NCBI RefSeq assembly: GCF_964213995.1
Contig: NC_135806.1
Location: forward strand, 66,588,001 to 66,652,000
Origin: Mustelus asterias
Taxonomy: Eukaryota
Direction of reading: 5' to 3'
DNA length: 64,000 nt
Of the stretch, positions 8,228 to 64,000 are shown piece after piece; positions within the stretch are counted from its first letter, which is position 1; every line of letters starts with the position of its first letter. Under the pieces are notes generated by a model. That model was not told the origin of the DNA and searched no databases. It was given only the letters and a program-made list of their open reading frames with translations. The position numbers and the translations under genes were made by a program.

Positions 8228-8814
8228 ACTAATCACAATCTGCCGATGCAAGAATGGCCCATTTATTTCTACTTTGTTTTTTGCCTGTTAGCCAATCCTT
8301 GGTCAATGCCAATAAATTGCCTCTTATCCTAAATGCTTTACTTTTGCTAACCATCCTCCTGTGGGGGATTTTGTCAAAAGCCTTCGGAAAATCCAAAGAT
8401 GCTATATCCAATAACTCCTCTTTATTAATTCTGTTGGTAACTTCCTCAACAAAGTCCACCAAGTTCATCAAACATGATTTTGCCTTCATAGATCCACGAT
8501 GACTATCTCCAATCAGATCGTTATTATCCAAGTGTCCATTTATCACATTCTTCAGAATAGAACCTGTGTTTATTCTACCTGTCTGGTGTGAGATTGGTAA
8601 ATTTATATTAAGCAAACATCGAAATATCAACATGGTGGGTGGCAGCAGTTCCTCTTAACAAAAGCTGAAGATTCCGAGGAAAGGCCCCTGACAAGGATTT
8701 GTGCCATACGTAAGCTGTATCTGCATTGAAGGGAGGAAGAAACAGGCAATGTTTCATGAGCAGTGAGTTCCTGATTTGTGGGGTAGTCAGATTGGTGGTG
8801 AATTAGAGTCTGAC

Positions 8815-11555: not shown

Positions 11556-11979
11556 AAGAGTGTAATTTCTCAGAAGCTGAAATATCCGAACCAATAATGG
11601 GACTGGTTATAGCTTCAATGCCAACTGAAAAAAAAGAAAGGTCATGATTGTTCCACAGGAGCAGGCTGAGGGTAAGGGAGCTTGTGTGTGCACTAATTTA
11701 TTTAATTATTTTTTCAGTTAAATTAGTGAAAAAAATCGGAGGTTTTTTTCTAAACAGGAAATAGGCCCAGCAGCAGCCTGGGAAGGTTTTGGAGGGTTTA
11801 AAAGTATGCCACACCTTTGAGCGGGCAGCGTCGTTAGCGGGCAGTGGAGTGAGCAGGGGACAGAGTGAGAGCTAAAAGGGCTTTGGCTCACAGGGCTTCG
11901 GCGAAGGCGAGGAAGGTTGTTTGTTTGTTTTTCTTCGGTTACACCCCCTTTTTGTTTTATCCCCAAAACTAAAAAGGGC

Positions 11980-13008
11980 ATGGCTGGTATGAGTGGGAGG
12001 CCAGTATACTGCATTCGGTGTGGGATGTGGGAGTTCCTGGAGACAACTTGCCTCCCGGAAGTCCATATCTGTGCCAGATGTGTGGAACTGCATCTCCTGA
12101 AGGATCGTGTAAGGGAGCTGGAGCTGAGGCTCGATGAACTCAGTTTAGTTAGGGAAAATGAGAGAGTAATAGATAAAAGTTATAGTCAGGTAGTGACACC
12201 AGGGTCTCGGAAGGAAGACACGTGGGTCACAGTTAGGAGGGGTAATAGTCAGAAGGGTGATGTGCCAGAAAGTACCCCAGTGGCAGTCTCCCATAAAAGA
12301 AAGGAATGGGCAACAGATGGGAGAAGGGAAGGGAGTGAGCAGTCTGTGGAGGGATCCCCTGTGGTTGTCCCCCTCCAAAATAGGTATCTTGTTTTGGATT
12401 CTGTGGAGGGGGATGACCCTCCAGGAGTAAGCCACGAGGACCAGATCGCCTCCACGGAGACAGGCTCAGGGGTCCGGAAGGGAAAGAAGGGGTTTAGGAG
12501 AGCGATAGTTGTGGGGGACGCAATGGTTAGAGGCACGGACAGGCGCTTCTGTGGGACTGAACGAGAATCCAGGATGGTAGTCTGCCTCCCTGGTGCCGGG
12601 GTACTGGATGTCTCCGAGAGGGTAGGAAGCATATTTAAAAAGGAAGGTAGTCAAACGGATGTGATTGTACACATTGGGGGAAATGATGTAGGTAGGAAGA
12701 GCAGGGGGGTCATACGAGAGAAATTCAGGGAGTTGGGTGCTAGGCTAAAAAGTAAGACCTCCAGGGTAGCAATATCTGGACTGCTCCCGGTGCCTAGTGC
12801 AAGTGAGGCTCGGAACAGGGAGATTCTACAGTTGAACGCGTGGCTAAAGGACTGGTGCAAGAGGGAGGGTTTTAAATTCATAGATAACTGGGAAATCTTC
12901 AAGTCAGGATGGCAACTGTACAGAAAGGATGGGTTACACCTTAACTGGAAGGGAGCAAATATCCTGGCTGGGAGTTTTGCTAGAGTGTTTCGGCAGGATT
13001 TAAACTAG
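11980..13008 (+). CDS. CR1 ORF1 protein (zinc finger, leucine zipper, SGNH esterase-like domain)
   Basis: MAGMSGRPVYCIRCGMWE...HICARC zinc finger; LKDRVRELELRLDEL coiled coil; IVVGDAMVRG, HIGGND and DGLHLN esterase blocks; first ATG at 11980; no internal stop. Confidence 0.92.
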   Translation: MAGMSGRPVYCIRCGMWEFLETTCLPEVHICARCVELHLLKDRVRELELRLDELSLVRENERVIDKSYSQVVTPGSRKEDTWVTVRRGNSQKGDVPESTPVAVSHKRKEWATDGRREGSEQSVEGSPVVVPLQNRYLVLDSVEGDDPPGVSHEDQIASTETGSGVRKGKKGFRRAIVVGDAMVRGTDRRFCGTERESRMVVCLPGAGVLDVSERVGSIFKKEGSQTDVIVHIGGNDVGRKSRGVIREKFRELGARLKSKTSRVAISGLLPVPSASEARNREILQLNAWLKDWCKREGFKFIDNWEIFKSGWQLYRKDGLHLNWKGANILAGSFARVFRQDLN

Positions 13009-15934
13009 TGTGGCAGGGGGGTGGGGAACAAAACAGGAAGTCAGTAAATACTGAGGCTGGGGTCGAGCTGGGGGCCAGGGCAAGGCTAGCTAAGAAGAGG
13101 AGCACTCTGGAGGAGGAGGACCTGACTGGGCCTGGAGGTCTGGAGTGCATCTGCTTCAATGCGAGGAGTGTAACGGGTAAAACAGACGAACCTAGGGCCT
13201 TAATGCTTGTGCGGAATTTGGATGTGGTTGCGGTGACGGAAACTTGGTTAAAAGAAGGACAGGACTGGCAGCTGAATATTCCGGGGTATAAGTGTTTTAG
13301 GCGAGACAGAGGAGGGGCTAAAAAAGGTGGGGGAGTAGCGATATTAGTTAAGGAGCATATTACCGCGGTGCAGAGGGTAGACAACTTAGAGGGGTCATGT
13401 ACTGAGTCGCTGTGGGTGGAACTCAGAAACAGGAAGGGTGCAGTCACTATGCTGGGGGTGTACTACAGACCACCCAACAGCCCACGGGAAGTGGAGGAGA
13501 GGATATGTCAGGAGATTCTGGATAGGTGCAGAAAACATAGGGTTGTTGTAGTGGGGGACTTTAATTTCCCTGGCACAGACTGGAAAGCGCTGAGAGCTGG
13601 GGGACCGGACGGGGAGGAATTTGTAAAATGCGTACTGGAAGGTTCTTTGGAACAGTATGTAGATAGCCCGACTAGAGAGGGGGCTATACTGGACCTAGTT
13701 CTGGGAAATGAGCCCGGTCAGGTCGTCAAAGTTTTGGTAGGGGAACATGTGGCAAATATTGACCACAACTCTGTTAACTTTAGGATAGTAATGGACAAGG
13801 ATGAGTGCTGTCCTACGGGCAGGGTGCTAAATTGGGGGAAGGCTGACTATAGCCGGATTAGGCAGGAATTGGTGGATGTTGATTGGGAGAGGATGTTCGA
13901 GGGTAAGTCCGCGTCTGGCATGTGGGAGTCTTTTAAGGAACTATTGATAAGGCTGCAGGATAGGCATGTGCCTGTAAAAAGGAAAGATAGGAAAGGTAGG
14001 ATTCGAGAGCCGTGGATAACCAGGGAAATTGAGGATCTGATTAAAATGAAAAGGGAGGCGTACGTTAAGTCCAGGCAACTGAAAACAGATGGAGCTCTGG
14101 AGGAATACAGAGAGAGTAGGAAAGATCTCAAACGGGGAGTTAGAAGGGCAAAAAGAGGTCACGAGATGTTCTTGGCAGGCAGGATTAAGGAGAATCCTAA
14201 GGCATTCTATTCATACGTTAGGAACAAAAGAGTTGTCAGGGAGAAAATCGGACCTCTCAGGGACAAAGGAGGGGAATTATGCTTAGAACCCAAGGGAATA
14301 GGGGAGATCCTAAATGAATACTTTGCATCGGTATTCACGAAGGAGAGGGGCGTGTTAACCGGGAGTGTCTCGGAGGGAGGTGTTGACCCGTTAGAGAAAA
14401 TCTCCATTACGAGAGAGGAAGTGTTAGGTTTTTTAGGGAACATTAAAACTGACAAAGCCCCAGGGCCTGATGGCATCTATCCTCGACTGCTCAGGGAGAC
14501 GAGAGGTGAAATTGCTGGGCATCTGACGGAAATCTTTGTCGCTTCTTTGGACACGGGTGAGGTCCCTGAGGATTGGAGGATAGCGAATGTGGTCCCGTTG
14601 TTTAAGAAGGGTAGCAGGGATAACCCAGGAAATTATAGGCCGGTGAGCTTGACGTCCGTGGTAGGGAAGTTGTTGGAGAGGATTCTTAGAGACAGGATGT
14701 ATGTGCATTTAGAACGGAACAATCTCATTAGTGACAGACAGCATGGTTTTGTAAGAGGGAGGTCGTGCCTTACAAATTTGGTGGAGTTTTTTGAGGAAGT
14801 GACAAAAACGGTTGATGAAGGAAGGGCCGTGGATGTCGTCTATATGGATTTCAGTAAGGCATTTGACAAAGTCCCACATGGCAGGTTGGTTAAGAAGGTT
14901 AAGGCTCATGGGATACAAGGAGAAGTGGCTAGATGGGTGGAGAACTGGCTTGGCCATAGGAGACAGAGGGTAGCGGTCGAAGGGTCTTTTTCCGGCTGGA
15001 GGTCTGTGACCAGTGGTGTTCCGCAGGGCTCTGTACTAGGACCTCTGCTATTTGTGATATATATATAAATGATTTGGAAGAAGGTGTAACTGGTGTAATC
15101 AGCAAGTTTGCGGATGACACGAAGATGGCTGGAATTGCAGATAGCGAAGAGCATTGTCGGGCAATACAGCAGGATATAGATAGGCTGGAAAATTGGGCGG
15201 AGAGGTGGCAGATGGAATTTAATCCGGATAAATGCGAAGTGATGCATTTTGGGAGAAATAATGTAGGGAGGAGTTATACAATAAATGGCAGAGTCATCAG
15301 GAGTATAGAAACACAGAGGGACCTAGGTGTGCAAGTCCACAAATCCTTGAAGGTGGCAACACAGGTGGAGAAGGTGGTGAAGAAGGCATATGGTATGCTT
15401 GCCTTTATAGGACGGGGTATAGAGTATAAAAGCTGGAGTCTGATGATGCAGCTGTATAGAACGCTGGTTAGGCCACATTTGGAGTACTGCGTCCAGTTCT
15501 GGTCGCCGCACTACCAGAAGGACGTGGAGGCATTGGAGAGAGTGCAGAGAAGGTTTACCAGGATGTTGCCTGGTATGGAGGGTCTTAGCTATGAGGAGAG
15601 ATTGGGTAGACTGGGGTTGTTCTCCTTGGAAAGACGGAGAATGAGGGGAGATCTAATAGAGGTATACAAGATTATGAAGGGTATAGATAGGGTGAACAGT
15701 GGGAAGCTTTTTCCCAGGTTGGAGGTGACGATCACGAGGGGTCACGGGCTCAAGCTGAGAGGGGCGAAGTATAACTCAGACATCAGAGGGACGTTTTTTA
15801 CACAGAGGGTGGTGGGGGCCTGGAATGCGCTGCCAAGTAGGGTGGTGGAGGCAGGCACGCTGACATCGTTTAAGACTTACCTGGATAGTCACATGAGCAG
15901 CCTGGGAATGGAGGGATACAAACGATTGGTCTAG
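13008..15934 (+). pseudogene. CR1 ORF2 (APE endonuclease and reverse transcriptase) with a single +2 frameshift at ~15057-15067
   Basis: APE motifs FNARS, VTETW, GVYYRPP, GDFN; RT motifs NYRPVSLTS, QHGF, DFSKAFD, GVPQGSVLGP, KFADD. ORFs 13008-15068 and 15074-15934 join if one AT unit is removed. Confidence 0.93.
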
Positions 15935-17754
15935 TTGGACCAAGGAGCGGCACAGGCTTGGAGGGCCGAAGGGCCTGTTTCCTGTGCTGTACTGTTCTTT
16001 GTTCTTTGTTCTTTGATAGTGATACACTGCTAAAAGACGACAGAAATATGAAGCCACTGTACCTGGACAACAATATCTACACGCATTAGATCCAACTAAC
16101 AGCACTGGTGCAGTAGCCCGGAAGCAGAAGGCAAAGAAGCCATGTGGGAAGTGTGGTCTGCTGCATCTACCATAAAGCTGTGCTGCATTCCAAGATCTTT
16201 GTAAGTTATGTGGTGTAAAAGGACATTGATCTCACCTGTGCACGAAATCTCATTCCAGATGTGACCAGAGGTAAGATACAACCAGACAAAGAGGTATGGT
16301 GCAGCATACTGGCAGCAACAACAGGATATACACCAGAGACACACATAAGCACAAGCATTTATGAGGTTAGCAGCAAAACAGACCACGGTGAAGATGTAGA
16401 GTGGAACGATCTTCAACTAGAAAACCAACAGGCTGTATATGTGACAGAACTTGAGAGTGAAGTCAAACAATTAGAAACTTTTCTTACTATCAACATCATA
16501 TGCCAAAGAAAAGTGGCAAACACGTGCTCACAGCCAAAGTTGACACAGGAGCGAGTGAGAATATCTTTTCAGTCAGAATACTGAATGGTATGTATCTGGA
16601 TAGTTAGAAGCCAATGATACAACCTACAACAGACAGACGCACTGTGTACAATGGGTCACCCATTCATTGTATAAGGACATTGACACTGAAATGCAGCTAT
16701 GGCAAGTCTGCGTGAAAACCACAAGAATTCTACCGGGTGGATATGAGCAGACCAGCTGTAGCAGGGTTACTGGCATGAATGGAAATCAATAATATGGCCA
16801 TGCACAACATCACCATGATACTAATCACAACAGAAGAAGCCAAGAATAATTACATGGAGTCATTCAATGATCAGCAACAGATGTACCCAGACAGATTCAA
16901 CACCATAGGGAACTGCAGAGGTGATGATGTACTACACCTCAGAGAAGACGCATTTCCATTGATTGATCCTCTTAGTGCTGTGTGCACATGCAGCAGAAGC
17001 TGAAGATTGAGTTGGATGACATGGAGCATAACAGCATTATCCTTCATGTTGCTCAGCACACCAATCGGTGCAGTTCCATCACATATGTGCTGAAAAAAGA
17101 TGTCATGTTCCAGGTGTACTTGGCCCAAAATGTATAAATCTTGCTCTAAAGAGATGCCCACACAAGGTTCCAACATCAGAGGAATTGCATCCCAATTCAC
17201 ATGAGGAAGGTTTTTTTTCCAAGTTGGATGCCAGACACTGATATTGATTAGTTAACTTGGCAGAGGGATCTCAAGAAATCACTACTTTCAGAACACCATT
17301 CAGGAGATACTGTTTCCAGAGATTACCCTTTGGTTTATCCATCAGTTAGGATCTGTTCTAGCAGTATAATGACAAAACCAAAAAAGGGCATGACCAAAAT
17401 CTACACTCACTGATGGCAGCAATTTGTTGTGAAGGATTCATCTTCAATGCAAGAAATGGCAGGTGAATGTGGATCAGATTAACCTCTTCGGTACAATATA
17501 CTCAAGTTCTAATCCATCCTGACTCAGGCAAACTCAAAATGTATGAGGCATGCCTACTCCCCAGAACAAAGAGGACTTGCAGAGATGCCTCCAATATTTC
17601 AACTTCTTAGCACCAAACTTTCCCAACTTTGCTAATAGAGTATCATTACTTGGAAAATCCTTTCTTAATAGGTTTCTCTATATGTATGGCAGGAGGGCCA
17701 TCAACACATGTTTCAGTTGCTTAAACAGGCATAGTCCGAAGAAACATTTATTCT

Positions 17755-24624: not shown

Positions 24625-26790
24625 GATCCAAGCCTCAACAAAGTTGAGGGTGTGAGTCCCAGATTTCCCTTTGTGTGACGGAATGCATCCTAAACTCACT
24701 CTGAACACCACGCTCTAATTTTAGGTTTATGTTCTCTCTATTCCACATTATAAATTTTCCTGACTCTGCCTGTAATGGACCTACATTTGCCTTCACCAAA
24801 CAATGCCTTTTTAACATCCATATGGAAACTTTTACAGTCTGTTTTTATGTTTTTTTGTTAGTTTGTATTTCTTTTTTATTTTCCCTTTATCAGTTTTTTG
24901 GTCGTCTTTTGCTGCACTCCAAAACCCTCCTTATCCTCAGATTTACAACAATTTCTAGTGATTTTATAGGCTTTTTCTATCAATTTAATACAATCTTTAA
25001 CTTCTTTTGTTAGCCATGGTTGACTGACTTTTCTTTTTGGGTTTTTGTGCCTTGAAGGAATGTACAGTTGCTGTAATCTATGTAATTTAAAGATAATCCA
25101 TTTGCCTATGTATCATCATATCTTTTCATTAAATGTGAGGTGATTCATTTTGGTAGGACAAATTTAAATGTGGATTACAGGGTCAAAGGTAGGGTTCTGA
25201 AGACTGTGGAGGAACAGAGAGATCTTGGGGTCCATATCCACAGATCTCTAAAGGTTGCCAGTCAAGTGGATAGAGCTGTGAAGAAGGCCTATAGTGTGTT
25301 AGCTTTTATTAACAGGGGGTTGGAGTTTAAGAGCCGTGGGGTTATGCTGCAACTGTACAGGACCTTGGTGAGACCACATTTGGAATATTGTGTGCAGTTC
25401 TGGTCACCTCACTATAAGAAGGATGTGGAAGCGCTGGAAAGAGTGCAGAGGAGATTTACCAGGATGCTGCCTGGTTTGGAGGGTAGGTCATATGAGGAAA
25501 GGTTGAGGGAGCTAGGGCTGTTCTCTCTGGAGCGGAGGAGGCTGAGGGGAGACTTAATAGAGGTGTATAAAATGATGAAGGGGATAGATAGAGTGAACGT
25601 TCAAAGACTATTTCCTCGGGTGGATGGAGCTATTACAAGGGGGCATAACTATAGGGTTCGTGGTGGGAGATACAGGACGGATATCAGAGGTAGGTTCTTT
25701 ACGCAGAGAGTGGTTGGGGTGTGGAATGGACTGCCTGCAGTGATAGTGGAGTCAGACACTTTAGAAACATTTAAGCGGTTATTGGATAGGCACATGGAGC
25801 ACACCAGGATGATAGGGAGTGGGATAGCTTGATCTTGGTTTCAGATAAAGCTCGGCACAACATCGTGGGCCGAAGGGCCTGTTCTGTGCTGTACTGTTCT
25901 ATGTTCTATGTCTATTTATTTTCTAAATCTACCTCAGCCAATTTGCCCCTCGTGCCGTCATCACTTATTTCATTCAAATTTCACACCCTGGCTTCAAATT
26001 GAATTACCTCACTTTCAAACATAATGTAAAATTCTATCATGGTCACTTATCCCTAAATATTGTTTTACAACTACATTATTAATTAGCTCTTTTCCATTAC
26101 ATAATACTTGATCTAAAATAACCTGTTCTCTAGTCAGTTCCTCAACACTTTGTTCTAGAAAATCATTCCTAACACATAGGACTCATTTAGTTTACCTAGT
26201 TCGAATGCAGGTTGATATTGCCTATGCTACATGCTTCTCTAATCTCCTGATTAGTACCATGCCCCACACTACCACTACTGTTTGGTGGCATATACGCAAC
26301 TTCTATCGATGTTTGCTGCCCTTTGCTGTTTCTTAGCTCCACCCAAACAGATTCCACATTGTGTTTTTCCGATCTGAGCTCCTTCCTTACTAATGTACTG
26401 ATCCTATCCTTTTTTACCCCTGCAAGACCACCTCCTTTTCCTCTTTGATGGTCCTTCATAAGTGTTGAATATCCTTGAATATTCAGTTCCTAGTCTTGGT
26501 CACCCTGCAGCCACCTTTCTATAAGGGCAATTAATTCATACCAATTTATTGCTAATTGTGCTTTTAAATCATCTACCTTGTTGTGAATGCTGTGAGCATT
26601 CGGGTAGATTGCCCTTTAACTTAATCTTTTTGACATTATTCTGCATTCTAAGCCTACCTGGTGCTTGCCTTTGTTTTGCCTGCCATCTAATTTCACTTGC
26701 CACTTTTTGTATTTCTTTATAATTTGTGATACTCCCTTAGGTTCCTATCTCCCCGGCAGCACTAGCAAATCTCCCTGCGAGGGTATCAGT
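24625..26790 (-). mobile_element. Old decayed CR1 ORF2 (endonuclease and linker region)
   Basis: ORF 26196-26459 KGGGLA...ESVWVELRNSKG...YMPPNS; ORF 24635-24817 KANVGPLQAESGKFIM. Confidence 0.8.
25131..25910 (+). mobile_element. Young 5'-truncated CR1 with an uninterrupted ORF2 C-terminus, inserted in older CR1
   Basis: Open 230-aa frame 25140-25832 (HFGRTN...RPHLEYCVQFWSP...FFTQRVV), 3' hairpin and (GTTCTAT)n tail. Confidence 0.93.
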
Positions 26791-62006: not shown

Positions 62007-64000
62007 ACATAGAATATAAAAAATAGGTGCAGGAGTAGGCCATTCGGCCCATCGACCTGCACCACCATTCAATATGATCATTGTTGATCATGCACTTTCA
62101 GTATCCCACTCCTGCTTTCTCTCCATATCCCTTGATCCCTTTAGCCACAAGGGCCACGTCCAGCTCCCTCTTGAACATATCTAACGAACTGGCCCCAGCA
62201 GCTTTCTGTGGTAGAGAATTCCACAGGTTCACAACTCTGAGTGAAGAAGCTGTTCCTCATCTTCGTCCTGAATGGCTTACCCCTTATTCTTAGACTGTGA
62301 CCCCTAGTTCTGCATTTCCCCAACATCAGGAAAATTCTTCCCGCATCTAGCCTGTCCAGTCCCATCAGGATTTTATATGTTTCTATGAGATCCCTCACAT
62401 TCTTCTAAATTCCAGTAAATATAAACCCAGTCGATCCAATCTCTCTTCATATGTTAGTCCTGTCATTCCAGGGATCAGTTTAGTGAACATTCGCTGGACT
62501 CCCTCAATAAAAGAATGTCCTTCCTCAGACTAGGAGACCATAACTGCACACAATACTCAAGGTCTCACCAAAGCCCGGTATAACTGTAGCAAGCCATCCT
62601 CACTTCTATACTCAAATCCTTTTGCTATGAAGGCCAGCATACCACTAGCTTTCCTTACCGTCCGTTATACCTGGATGCCAACCTTTAGCGACTGTTCCAC
62701 CATGACACCCCAGGTCACGTTGCACTTCCCCTTTTCCTAAACTGCCACCATTCAGATAATAATCTTCCTTCCTGTTTTTGCCACCAAAGTGAATAACCTC
62801 ACATTTATGCACATTGTAATGTATTTACCCACTCAGTCAGATGTCCGAGTCACCCTGCAGCCCCTTAGCATTCTCCTCACAGCACACACTGCCATCCAGC
62901 TCACTGTCATCTGCAAATTTGGAGACATTAAATTCAATTCTTTCGTTCAAATCATTAATGCATACTGTGAATAGTATGCACTGAACCCTGCGATACCCCA
63001 CTAGTCACTACCTGCCACTCTGAAAAGGACCTGTTTATTCCCATTCTCTGCTTCCTGTCTGCCAACCAGTTCTCTATCCACATCAATACATTACCCCAAT
63101 ACCATGAGCTTTAATCTTGCTCACTAATCTCTTGTGTAGGTCGTTGTCAAAAGCCTTTTGAAAGTCCAGATACACAACATTCTCTGGTTCACCCTTGTCC
63201 ACTCTGCTGGTCACATCCTCAAAAAATTCCATGATTACCCTTTAGTGAATCCATGCTGACTTGGACTGATCCTGTCACTGCTTTCCAAATGCTCAGTTAT
63301 GACATCCTTAATAATTGACTCCAGCATTTTCCCTACCACTGATGTCACGCTAACAGGTCTATAATTCTCTGTTTCCTCTCCCTCCTTTTTTAAAAGATGT
63401 GGTTACATTAGCTACCCTCCAATACATTGGAACTCTTTCAGAGTCTATAGAATGCTGAAAAATAATCACCAATGCGTTCACAATTTCTAGGGTCACTTCC
63501 TTGAGTACTCTAGGATGTAGAACATCAGGCCCTGGAGACTTATTGGGTTTTAATCCCAGCAATTTCCCCAATATAATTTCCTGACTAATAAAGATTTCCT
63601 TCAGTTCCTCTTTCATGCTAGACCCTCTGTCCGCTAGTATTTCTGGAAGGTTATTCGTGTCCTCCGTAATGACGACAGATCCAAAGTATTTGTTCAGCTT
63701 GTCTGCCATCTCTTTGTTGCCCATTATGAATTCACCTGATTCTAACATTTAGGGACCTATATTTGTCTTCACCAGTCTTTTTATCTTCACATATCTATAG
63801 AAGCTTTTGCAGTCAGTTTTTACATTTTCTGCAAGCTTACTCTTGTATTCTATTTTGCCCTCCCGAATTGAACCCTTTGCCCACCTCTGCTGGATTTTAA
63901 ATTTCTCCCAGTCCTCGGGTTTGCTGCTTTTTTGGGCCAATTTATACACCTCCTCTTTGGCTTTAACGCTATCCCTGATTTCCCTTGTGAGCCATGATTG
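62007..64000 (-). mobile_element. Decayed CR1 LINE ORF2, running off the window end
   Basis: Minus ORFs 63359-63748 (LNKYFGSV...KSPGPDVLHPRVLKE...WRVANVT), 63749-63949 and 62141-62398; 3' tail ACATAGAATATAAAAAATAGG. Confidence 0.9.

Follow-up and report, generated by a model that had tools for sequence, protein, structure and literature searches.

We propose that a CR1 retrotransposon of the shark Mustelus asterias makes its second protein as an extension of its first, by programmed −1 ribosomal frameshifting at the slippery heptamer U_UUA_AAC. The element lies in a 64,000-nt stretch of DNA (NC_135806.1, positions 66,588,001-66,652,000, assembly GCF_964213995.1), hereafter called the window, to whose numbering all positions refer. 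Its domains and motifs, together with the named proteins closest to it, place it provisionally among the canonical vertebrate CR1 long interspersed nuclear elements (LINEs). Its first open reading frame (ORF1) ends GAT TTA AAC TAG, so that TTTAAAC (12999-13005, + strand) stands as X_XXY_YYZ in the ORF1 frame and is abutted by the stop codon TAG (13006-13008), as the initial annotation of this DNA had pointed out. Its reading of the −1 frame, TTT AAA CTA GTG TGG CAG, as the ORF2 frame holds as well: this frame is open from 12984 to 15068 and encodes an endonuclease and a reverse transcriptase (RT). The ORF1-ORF2 fusion that it suggested is supported by the invariant in-register heptamer, by a linker open in the −1 frame and by how often an AUG is missing; we give this predicted, gag-pol-like product a probability of about 85%.

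The slippery heptamer across CR1 families

Our counts come from 247 loci (L001-L247), namely copies from the shark's own genome, retrieved by searching with the window DNA and six ORF1 proteins, together with 20 metagenome and 4 genome-collection loci; the set leans to young, near-identical copies and includes some duplicates, with 218 distinct stretches. With an ORF1 profile built without the final 8 codons, we detected an ORF1 end in 234 loci, and in 207 of these the stop stood at the expected place. TTTAAAC closes ORF1 in 197 of the 207 junctions, and the remaining 10 have a single-base change. It is likewise present in 186 of the 193 junctions that have an endonuclease match (198 before 5 refetched duplicates were dropped) and in all 18 family representatives. 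The latter were hand-picked, one per family, with an open −1 linker required; 14 are from the own genome and 4 from metagenomes, and these four are called bird-type because their ORF1 relatives are bird proteins. The bare sequence TTTAAAC is common in the window (12 on the + strand, 11 on the −). What lifts it above chance is its constant position ahead of the ORF1 stop and its genome-wide count: the heptamer followed by a stop, 7 nt and the G tract described below gives 16,022 matches, against 4 for a reversed control.

The stop codon is far less constrained. Among the 197 heptamer junctions it is TAG in 149 and TAA in 48, and a CR1 family ending in TGA (L290-L295, G000:C1), which together with the 18 makes up the 19 representatives used below, has the heptamer in 6/6 copies fetched, with a ten-G run and a 104-nt linker in the −1 frame. 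When the genome pattern was relaxed to accept every Leu, Asn and stop codon ahead of the G tract, 19,538 matches were found (control, 437); among the first 100 listed, 97 read TTAAAC, and most of the extra ones there belong to the TGA-stop family. Since the relaxed pattern adds little and the TGA family keeps the heptamer, the seven bases are fixed and the stop is free.

Protein sequence could in principle hold these bases in place, if the terminal Leu-Asn of ORF1 and an overlapping Phe-Lys-Leu and Gly-x-Gly of ORF2 fixed them without any recoding. Leu-Asn does end 73 of 128 distinct ORF1 tails (140 kept of 192 proteins), and FKLxxxGxG is the sole conserved stretch of the linker. The codons, however, speak against this explanation. 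In the 18 representatives, whose ORF1 C-terminal parts share 24-91% pairwise identity, the residue is invariant in 15 ORF1 columns, of which just two are written with a single codon, the last Leu (TTA in 18/18) and the last Asn (AAC in 18/18); codons vary at the other 13. TTA fills just 8 of 104 cells in six other conserved Leu columns, and AAT, silent in both frames at the Asn, occurs in 0/18. The codon preceding the terminal Leu specifies 8 different residues, with T as its third base in 18/18. Glycines encoded by the G tract are GGG in 18/18 and 17/18 cases, against 56/124 at other conserved Gly columns. Phe-Lys in ORF2 would moreover require entry upstream of the stop, and the −1 frame is closed no more than 5 codons upstream of the heptamer in 141 of the 193 junctions; in the window, a TAG five codons upstream (12981-12983, + strand) closes it and so limits the ORF2 entry point. 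Finally, the solved esterase 4c1b aligns only to position 307 of the 311 in the profile. Protein constraint is therefore extremely improbable in our estimation, and the heptamer is, on this codon evidence, conserved at synonymous sites beyond protein needs. The initial annotation proposed to look for synonymous variants of the heptamer; none was seen across the families.

Entry into ORF2

The −1 frame encodes the endonuclease in 167 of the 193 junctions. It is also the frame in which the first 30 codons following the stop are most often uninterrupted, with 173 junctions, compared with 38 for the 0 frame and 6 for the +1 frame. The window copy has an open −1-frame linker without AUG (13009-13139, + strand) that leads from ORF1 to the endonuclease. 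Linkers of the 19 representatives come in 14 lengths, from 92 to 347 nt, every one of them in −1 register. An AUG is absent before the first endonuclease Asn in 9/19; elsewhere the AUG positions are scattered. In the window copy, the first in-frame ATG (13203) is codon 68 counted from the heptamer, 15 codons later than the Asn (codon 53, 13158) of the motif CICFNARS, and the earlier statement that this ATG comes after the motif is thus borne out. This Asn probably corresponds, as we assume from spacing, to the active-site Asn14 of L1: it sits 27 residues N-terminal of the Glu of an ETW motif that is aligned to L1 residue 43, in a weak match to the L1 endonuclease 1vyb (E 0.015). Taking the −1-open linker together with the frequent lack of AUG, ORF2 must therefore be entered at the junction, where a start codon is not conserved.

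Entry at the junction could also be achieved by termination-reinitiation, in which the ribosome, held by TTTAAAC, the stop and the G tract, restarts near the ORF1 stop at an AUG or non-AUG codon, as proposed for L1 and SART1. This is the mechanism described for both LINEs studied, L1 and SART1 (PMC5972666), and L1 initiation has been called AUG-independent (PMC5009743). Termination-reinitiation predicts an open −1 linker equally well, the stop always adjoins the motif, and in three bird-type loci an in-frame AUG stands 5 nt from where the stop begins. However, an overlapping stop-start is absent. The codon lying over the stop takes many forms and is GTG in only 1/19 representatives; GTG at 13008 had been named in the initial annotation as a possible ORF2 start. 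An in-frame AUG within 30 nt of the stop is found in 3/19, all bird-type, and with these frequencies we rejected the stop as a site of GTG or AUG initiation. An upstream UGGGA is a feature of termination-reinitiation; here it occurs within 100 nt upstream in 8/19, at −96, −81, −55 or −37, and its place is not conserved. Reinitiation also leaves unexplained why conservation falls on precisely the seven bases of an in-register X_XXY_YYZ while the stop varies. We consider it unlikely.

Another possibility is that the motif serves RNA processing or acts as a DNA signal, with AACTAG as a splice acceptor, TTTAAA plus a G-rich element as a weak polyadenylation signal, or an internal start for a separate ORF2 message. 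TTTAAA is a weak poly(A) hexamer, and G tracts are common as processing elements. Against a splice acceptor, an AG is missing from this position in the TAA and TGA families, and an upstream pyrimidine tract is absent. A separate ORF2 message would still be without an AUG before the endonuclease in the nine representatives mentioned above, and processing signals require no codon register. This explanation is very unlikely in our view. The junction is spanned by contigs of four sequencing runs, which we guess to be RNA; 13047-13245 is skipped in one contig of low depth, with ends that are not GT-AG, and we draw no conclusion from these contigs.

The G tract and a proposed mechanism for the shift

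Beyond the stop, a spacer of 7 bases (13009-13015, + strand), constant in length and variable in sequence, is followed by a G tract with a G5-NN-G3 core (13016-13026, + strand), which is a candidate stimulator of the shift. The tract keeps a constant 10 nt after the heptamer, and G5-NN-GG is present in 149 of the 193 junctions. G fills its third codon positions in 17, 18 and 17 of the 18 representatives. The G runs listed in the initial annotation are all there (GG at 13012-13013, G6 at 13016-13021, G4 at 13023-13026), but only the tract from 13016 is conserved. A stimulator beginning 6 nt downstream is accordingly not what we find: the conserved tract begins 10 nt past the heptamer, at a place where our searches revealed no RNA structure.

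We suggest a plausible mechanism on this basis. The tRNA-Leu and tRNA-Asn would slip in tandem by one base on U_UUA_AAC, and a fraction of ribosomes would thereby shift and produce ...D-L-N-L-V-W-Q-G-G-G..., an ORF1-linker-endonuclease-RT fusion. The majority would terminate, giving an excess of ORF1 protein. The pause signal would be the G tract, perhaps together with the adjacent stop, and a bound protein or the ribosome entry channel seems likelier to be involved than a local RNA fold. That the G tract stimulates in either of these ways is the weakest step of our proposal.

Several observations weigh against the frameshifting model. Some concern the stimulator: in the 18 representatives, no local fold beyond that of shuffled sequences was found in 60 and 100 nt downstream or 60 nt upstream (z −1.9 to +1.6), in tests where pseudoknots were not directly modelled; no consistent long-range partner of the G tract appeared in 20 longer loci; no cognate-specific or covarying partner was present in 219 ORF1 windows; and a G-quadruplex was rejected, with the two-tier pattern in only 8/18 representatives. 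Others concern the junctions. Of the 234 loci, 27 were set aside with the stop elsewhere; they include truncated, outgroup and damaged copies, and 11 of them keep TTTAAACTA nearby. The endonuclease is in another frame in 26 of the 193 junctions, which we read as single-copy decay, without a case-by-case check. A linker AUG is carried by 10/19 representatives, and in 3 bird-type ones it is just past the stop. The counts are not independent, since the families share ancestry, and the representatives were selected for an open −1 linker. A protein-level test of the residue before Leu-Asn was weak, adjacent positions being equally poor in the residues concerned. Among 326 candidates none scored as a longer, fused protein, which is weak evidence. 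The fusion is a prediction from sequence.

Recurring C-rich ORF1 sites, at about −430 and −650, had been considered as partners of the G tract and were rejected, as they pair equally well with the tracts of other families. With neither fold, partner nor covariation tests revealing a classical 3' RNA structure 5-9 nt downstream, the G tract is, as far as these sequence tests go, not a stimulator of the classical kind (stem-loop or pseudoknot). Spacers are given as 5-9 nt where the stimulator is an RNA structure and as 11-14 nt in the arterivirus and cardiovirus cases, which depend on a protein (PMC5009743).

The element, its relatives and known systems

The window element is a young, full-length CR1 copy on the + strand (11647-16015), in which 98-99% matches to other copies start at 11647 and reach about 16010. 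A search with the junction yielded 1742 candidate copies, the top 40 at 99-100% identity. ORF1 (11980-13008, + strand) encodes 342 aa, with a Cys-rich N-terminus, an SGNH/GDSL esterase domain (PF13472, E 8.7e-12) and the C-terminus ...QDLN*; a profile built from its relatives matches the ORF1 protein of PDB 4c1b at E 1.1e-37. The APE endonuclease domain follows at 13140-13775 (+ strand; PF03372, PF14529), and RT with the C-terminal part of ORF2 occupies 14610-15934 (+ strand) in two frames, with PF00078 in both pieces. The frame changes within an (AT)n run at about 15057-15068, so that a full-length RT is impossible from the window copy as it stands. In another CR1 family, two copies have an uninterrupted stretch of 1006 codons that starts at the heptamer and takes in the RT motif. 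At its 3' end the window element has a (TGTTCTT) repeat of 3.3 units (15993-16015, + strand), and a poly(A) tail is absent. A short tandem-repeat 3' end is a CR1 trait. The closest named proteins are from ray and shark. An esterase ORF1, an ORF2 with APE and RT, and no poly(A) make up the canonical vertebrate CR1 layout, and in most vertebrate species the CR1 group dominates among retrotransposons, according to a 2026 survey (PMC13343379). The window also contains diverged LINE ORF2 fragments at 8274-8558, 24954-26654 and 62979-64000, all on the − strand and 34-60% identical to the window ORF2; no ORF1 match was found at these three. Several full-length copies, L004, L014 and L028 among others, have the initial 100-160 bases of their 5' end twice, matching window positions 11647-11805.

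Leu-Asn ends ORF1 in 79 of 112 further relatives, many of them named bird, turtle or lizard proteins, and named relatives also include snake, lizard, turtle, swallow and eel examples. Among the 128 distinct tails introduced above, 37 do not end in Asn, 10 end in Gly-Asn (P0096, P0098, P0099, P0102, P0103, P0108, P0110, P0139, P0147 and P0179), 9 of these after Gln, and 2 end in Ser-Lys-Asn (P0122, P0184). Gln-Gly-Asn and Ser-Lys-Asn tails can spell G_GGA_AAC and A_AAA_AAC, which is a lead at the protein level. U_UUA_AAC, G_GGA_AAC and A_AAA_AAC are three of the four heptamers named as most shift-prone (PMC5009743). Two ray gene models, P0014 and P0005, one of them named hydroxyacid oxidase 2 isoform, have a CR1 ORF1 that continues in frame into the linker and endonuclease; these, and the G000 copies L146, L158 and L180, in which ORF1 runs into ORF2 in one frame, are read as single-copy changes or annotation and not as support. 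Neither relatives nor the motif were found in viral contigs, and none were found in plasmids.

More distant esterase LINEs were found at 22 loci in two bacterial assemblies (G001, G002), on contigs resembling animal host DNA. In 9 of the 22 (L249, L252, L254, L255, L259, L260, L261, L265 and L266), the ORF1 TAG is followed by a long frame in the same frame; an endonuclease domain lies past this TAG in 8/8 loci checked, two of them without an AUG before it. GGC(A/G)-N4-TGCC stands six bases past the TAG in the 8/8 aligned (L249 left out; for example L254:2250-2275), without compensatory changes. The sequences of these same-frame UAG junctions suggest candidate stop-codon readthrough, although the loci may derive from a single host and the motif may reflect constraint on the protein. 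Animal-type LINE ORF1 is found in G001, G002 and G003 and in the proteins P0012 and P0293, under Pseudomonas and Klebsiella labels, and is probably host contamination in these bacterial assemblies and proteins. A broader idea, to which we give somewhat less than even odds, is that esterase LINEs keep a retrovirus-like fusion strategy and swap the recoding device: U_UUA_AAC with a new type of unstructured G-tract stimulator in vertebrate CR1s, G_GGA_AAC or A_AAA_AAC in distant relatives, and in-frame UAG readthrough in one further clade, a division also known from retroviruses.

While −1 frameshifting on U_UUA_AAC is well known in viruses, its use for a LINE ORF2 would be the new part, and we found no report of it. 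Our literature search retrieved no report of frameshifting for LINE ORF2 or CR1; the founding CR1 papers fall outside its coverage, where an earlier mention is possible. In the main text of the 2026 CR1 survey, the terms frameshift, slippery, readthrough, overlap and start codon do not occur (PMC13343379), and "CR1" is absent from the 300,000 characters covered of a 2016 review of frameshifting (PMC5009743). Term searches of PMC4255032 and PMC6609765 turned up mutational frameshifts only. If our proposal is true, the CR1 endonuclease-RT would be born joined to the ORF1 protein at a set ratio, unlike that of L1, and ORF2 start annotations would need correction. The 30-base natural cassette, with its roughly 16,000 occurrences in the genome, would also suit the testing of a stimulator seemingly independent of RNA fold.

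This scheme recalls coronavirus ORF1a/1b, where infectious bronchitis virus uses U_UUA_AAC, and retroviral gag-pol: CR1 has the same heptamer in the same register, and a structural or packaging protein lies upstream with the polymerase downstream in the −1 frame (PMC5009743). In contrast to these systems, the stop of CR1 abuts the heptamer, a stem-loop or pseudoknot 5-9 nt away was not found, and CR1 is a retrotransposon without long terminal repeats (non-LTR). In the protein-stimulated frameshifting of PRRSV, nsp1beta and PCBP act on CCCANCUCC, 11 nt 3' of the shift site; as in CR1, this is a short, unstructured motif rich in a single base, at about 10 nt (PMC5009743). The CR1 tract, however, is G-rich instead of C-rich, the predicted shift is −1 only, and a bound protein is a proposal for CR1 (PMC5009743 for the virus). 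Drosophila HeT-A is, like CR1, a non-LTR element, and its gag is said to need a frameshift (PMC5009743), but the shift there is inside gag, and HeT-A is without reverse transcriptase, so that no gag-pol-like fusion would result (PMC5009743). With L1 and SART1, CR1 shares a bicistronic LINE RNA in which ORF2 is reached after ORF1 (PMC5972666). Neither the 63-nt spacer and own AUG of L1 nor the overlapping UAAUG of SART1 is conserved in CR1 (PMC5972666 for the two LINEs), and where those elements make a free ORF2 protein, the prediction for CR1 is a fusion protein.

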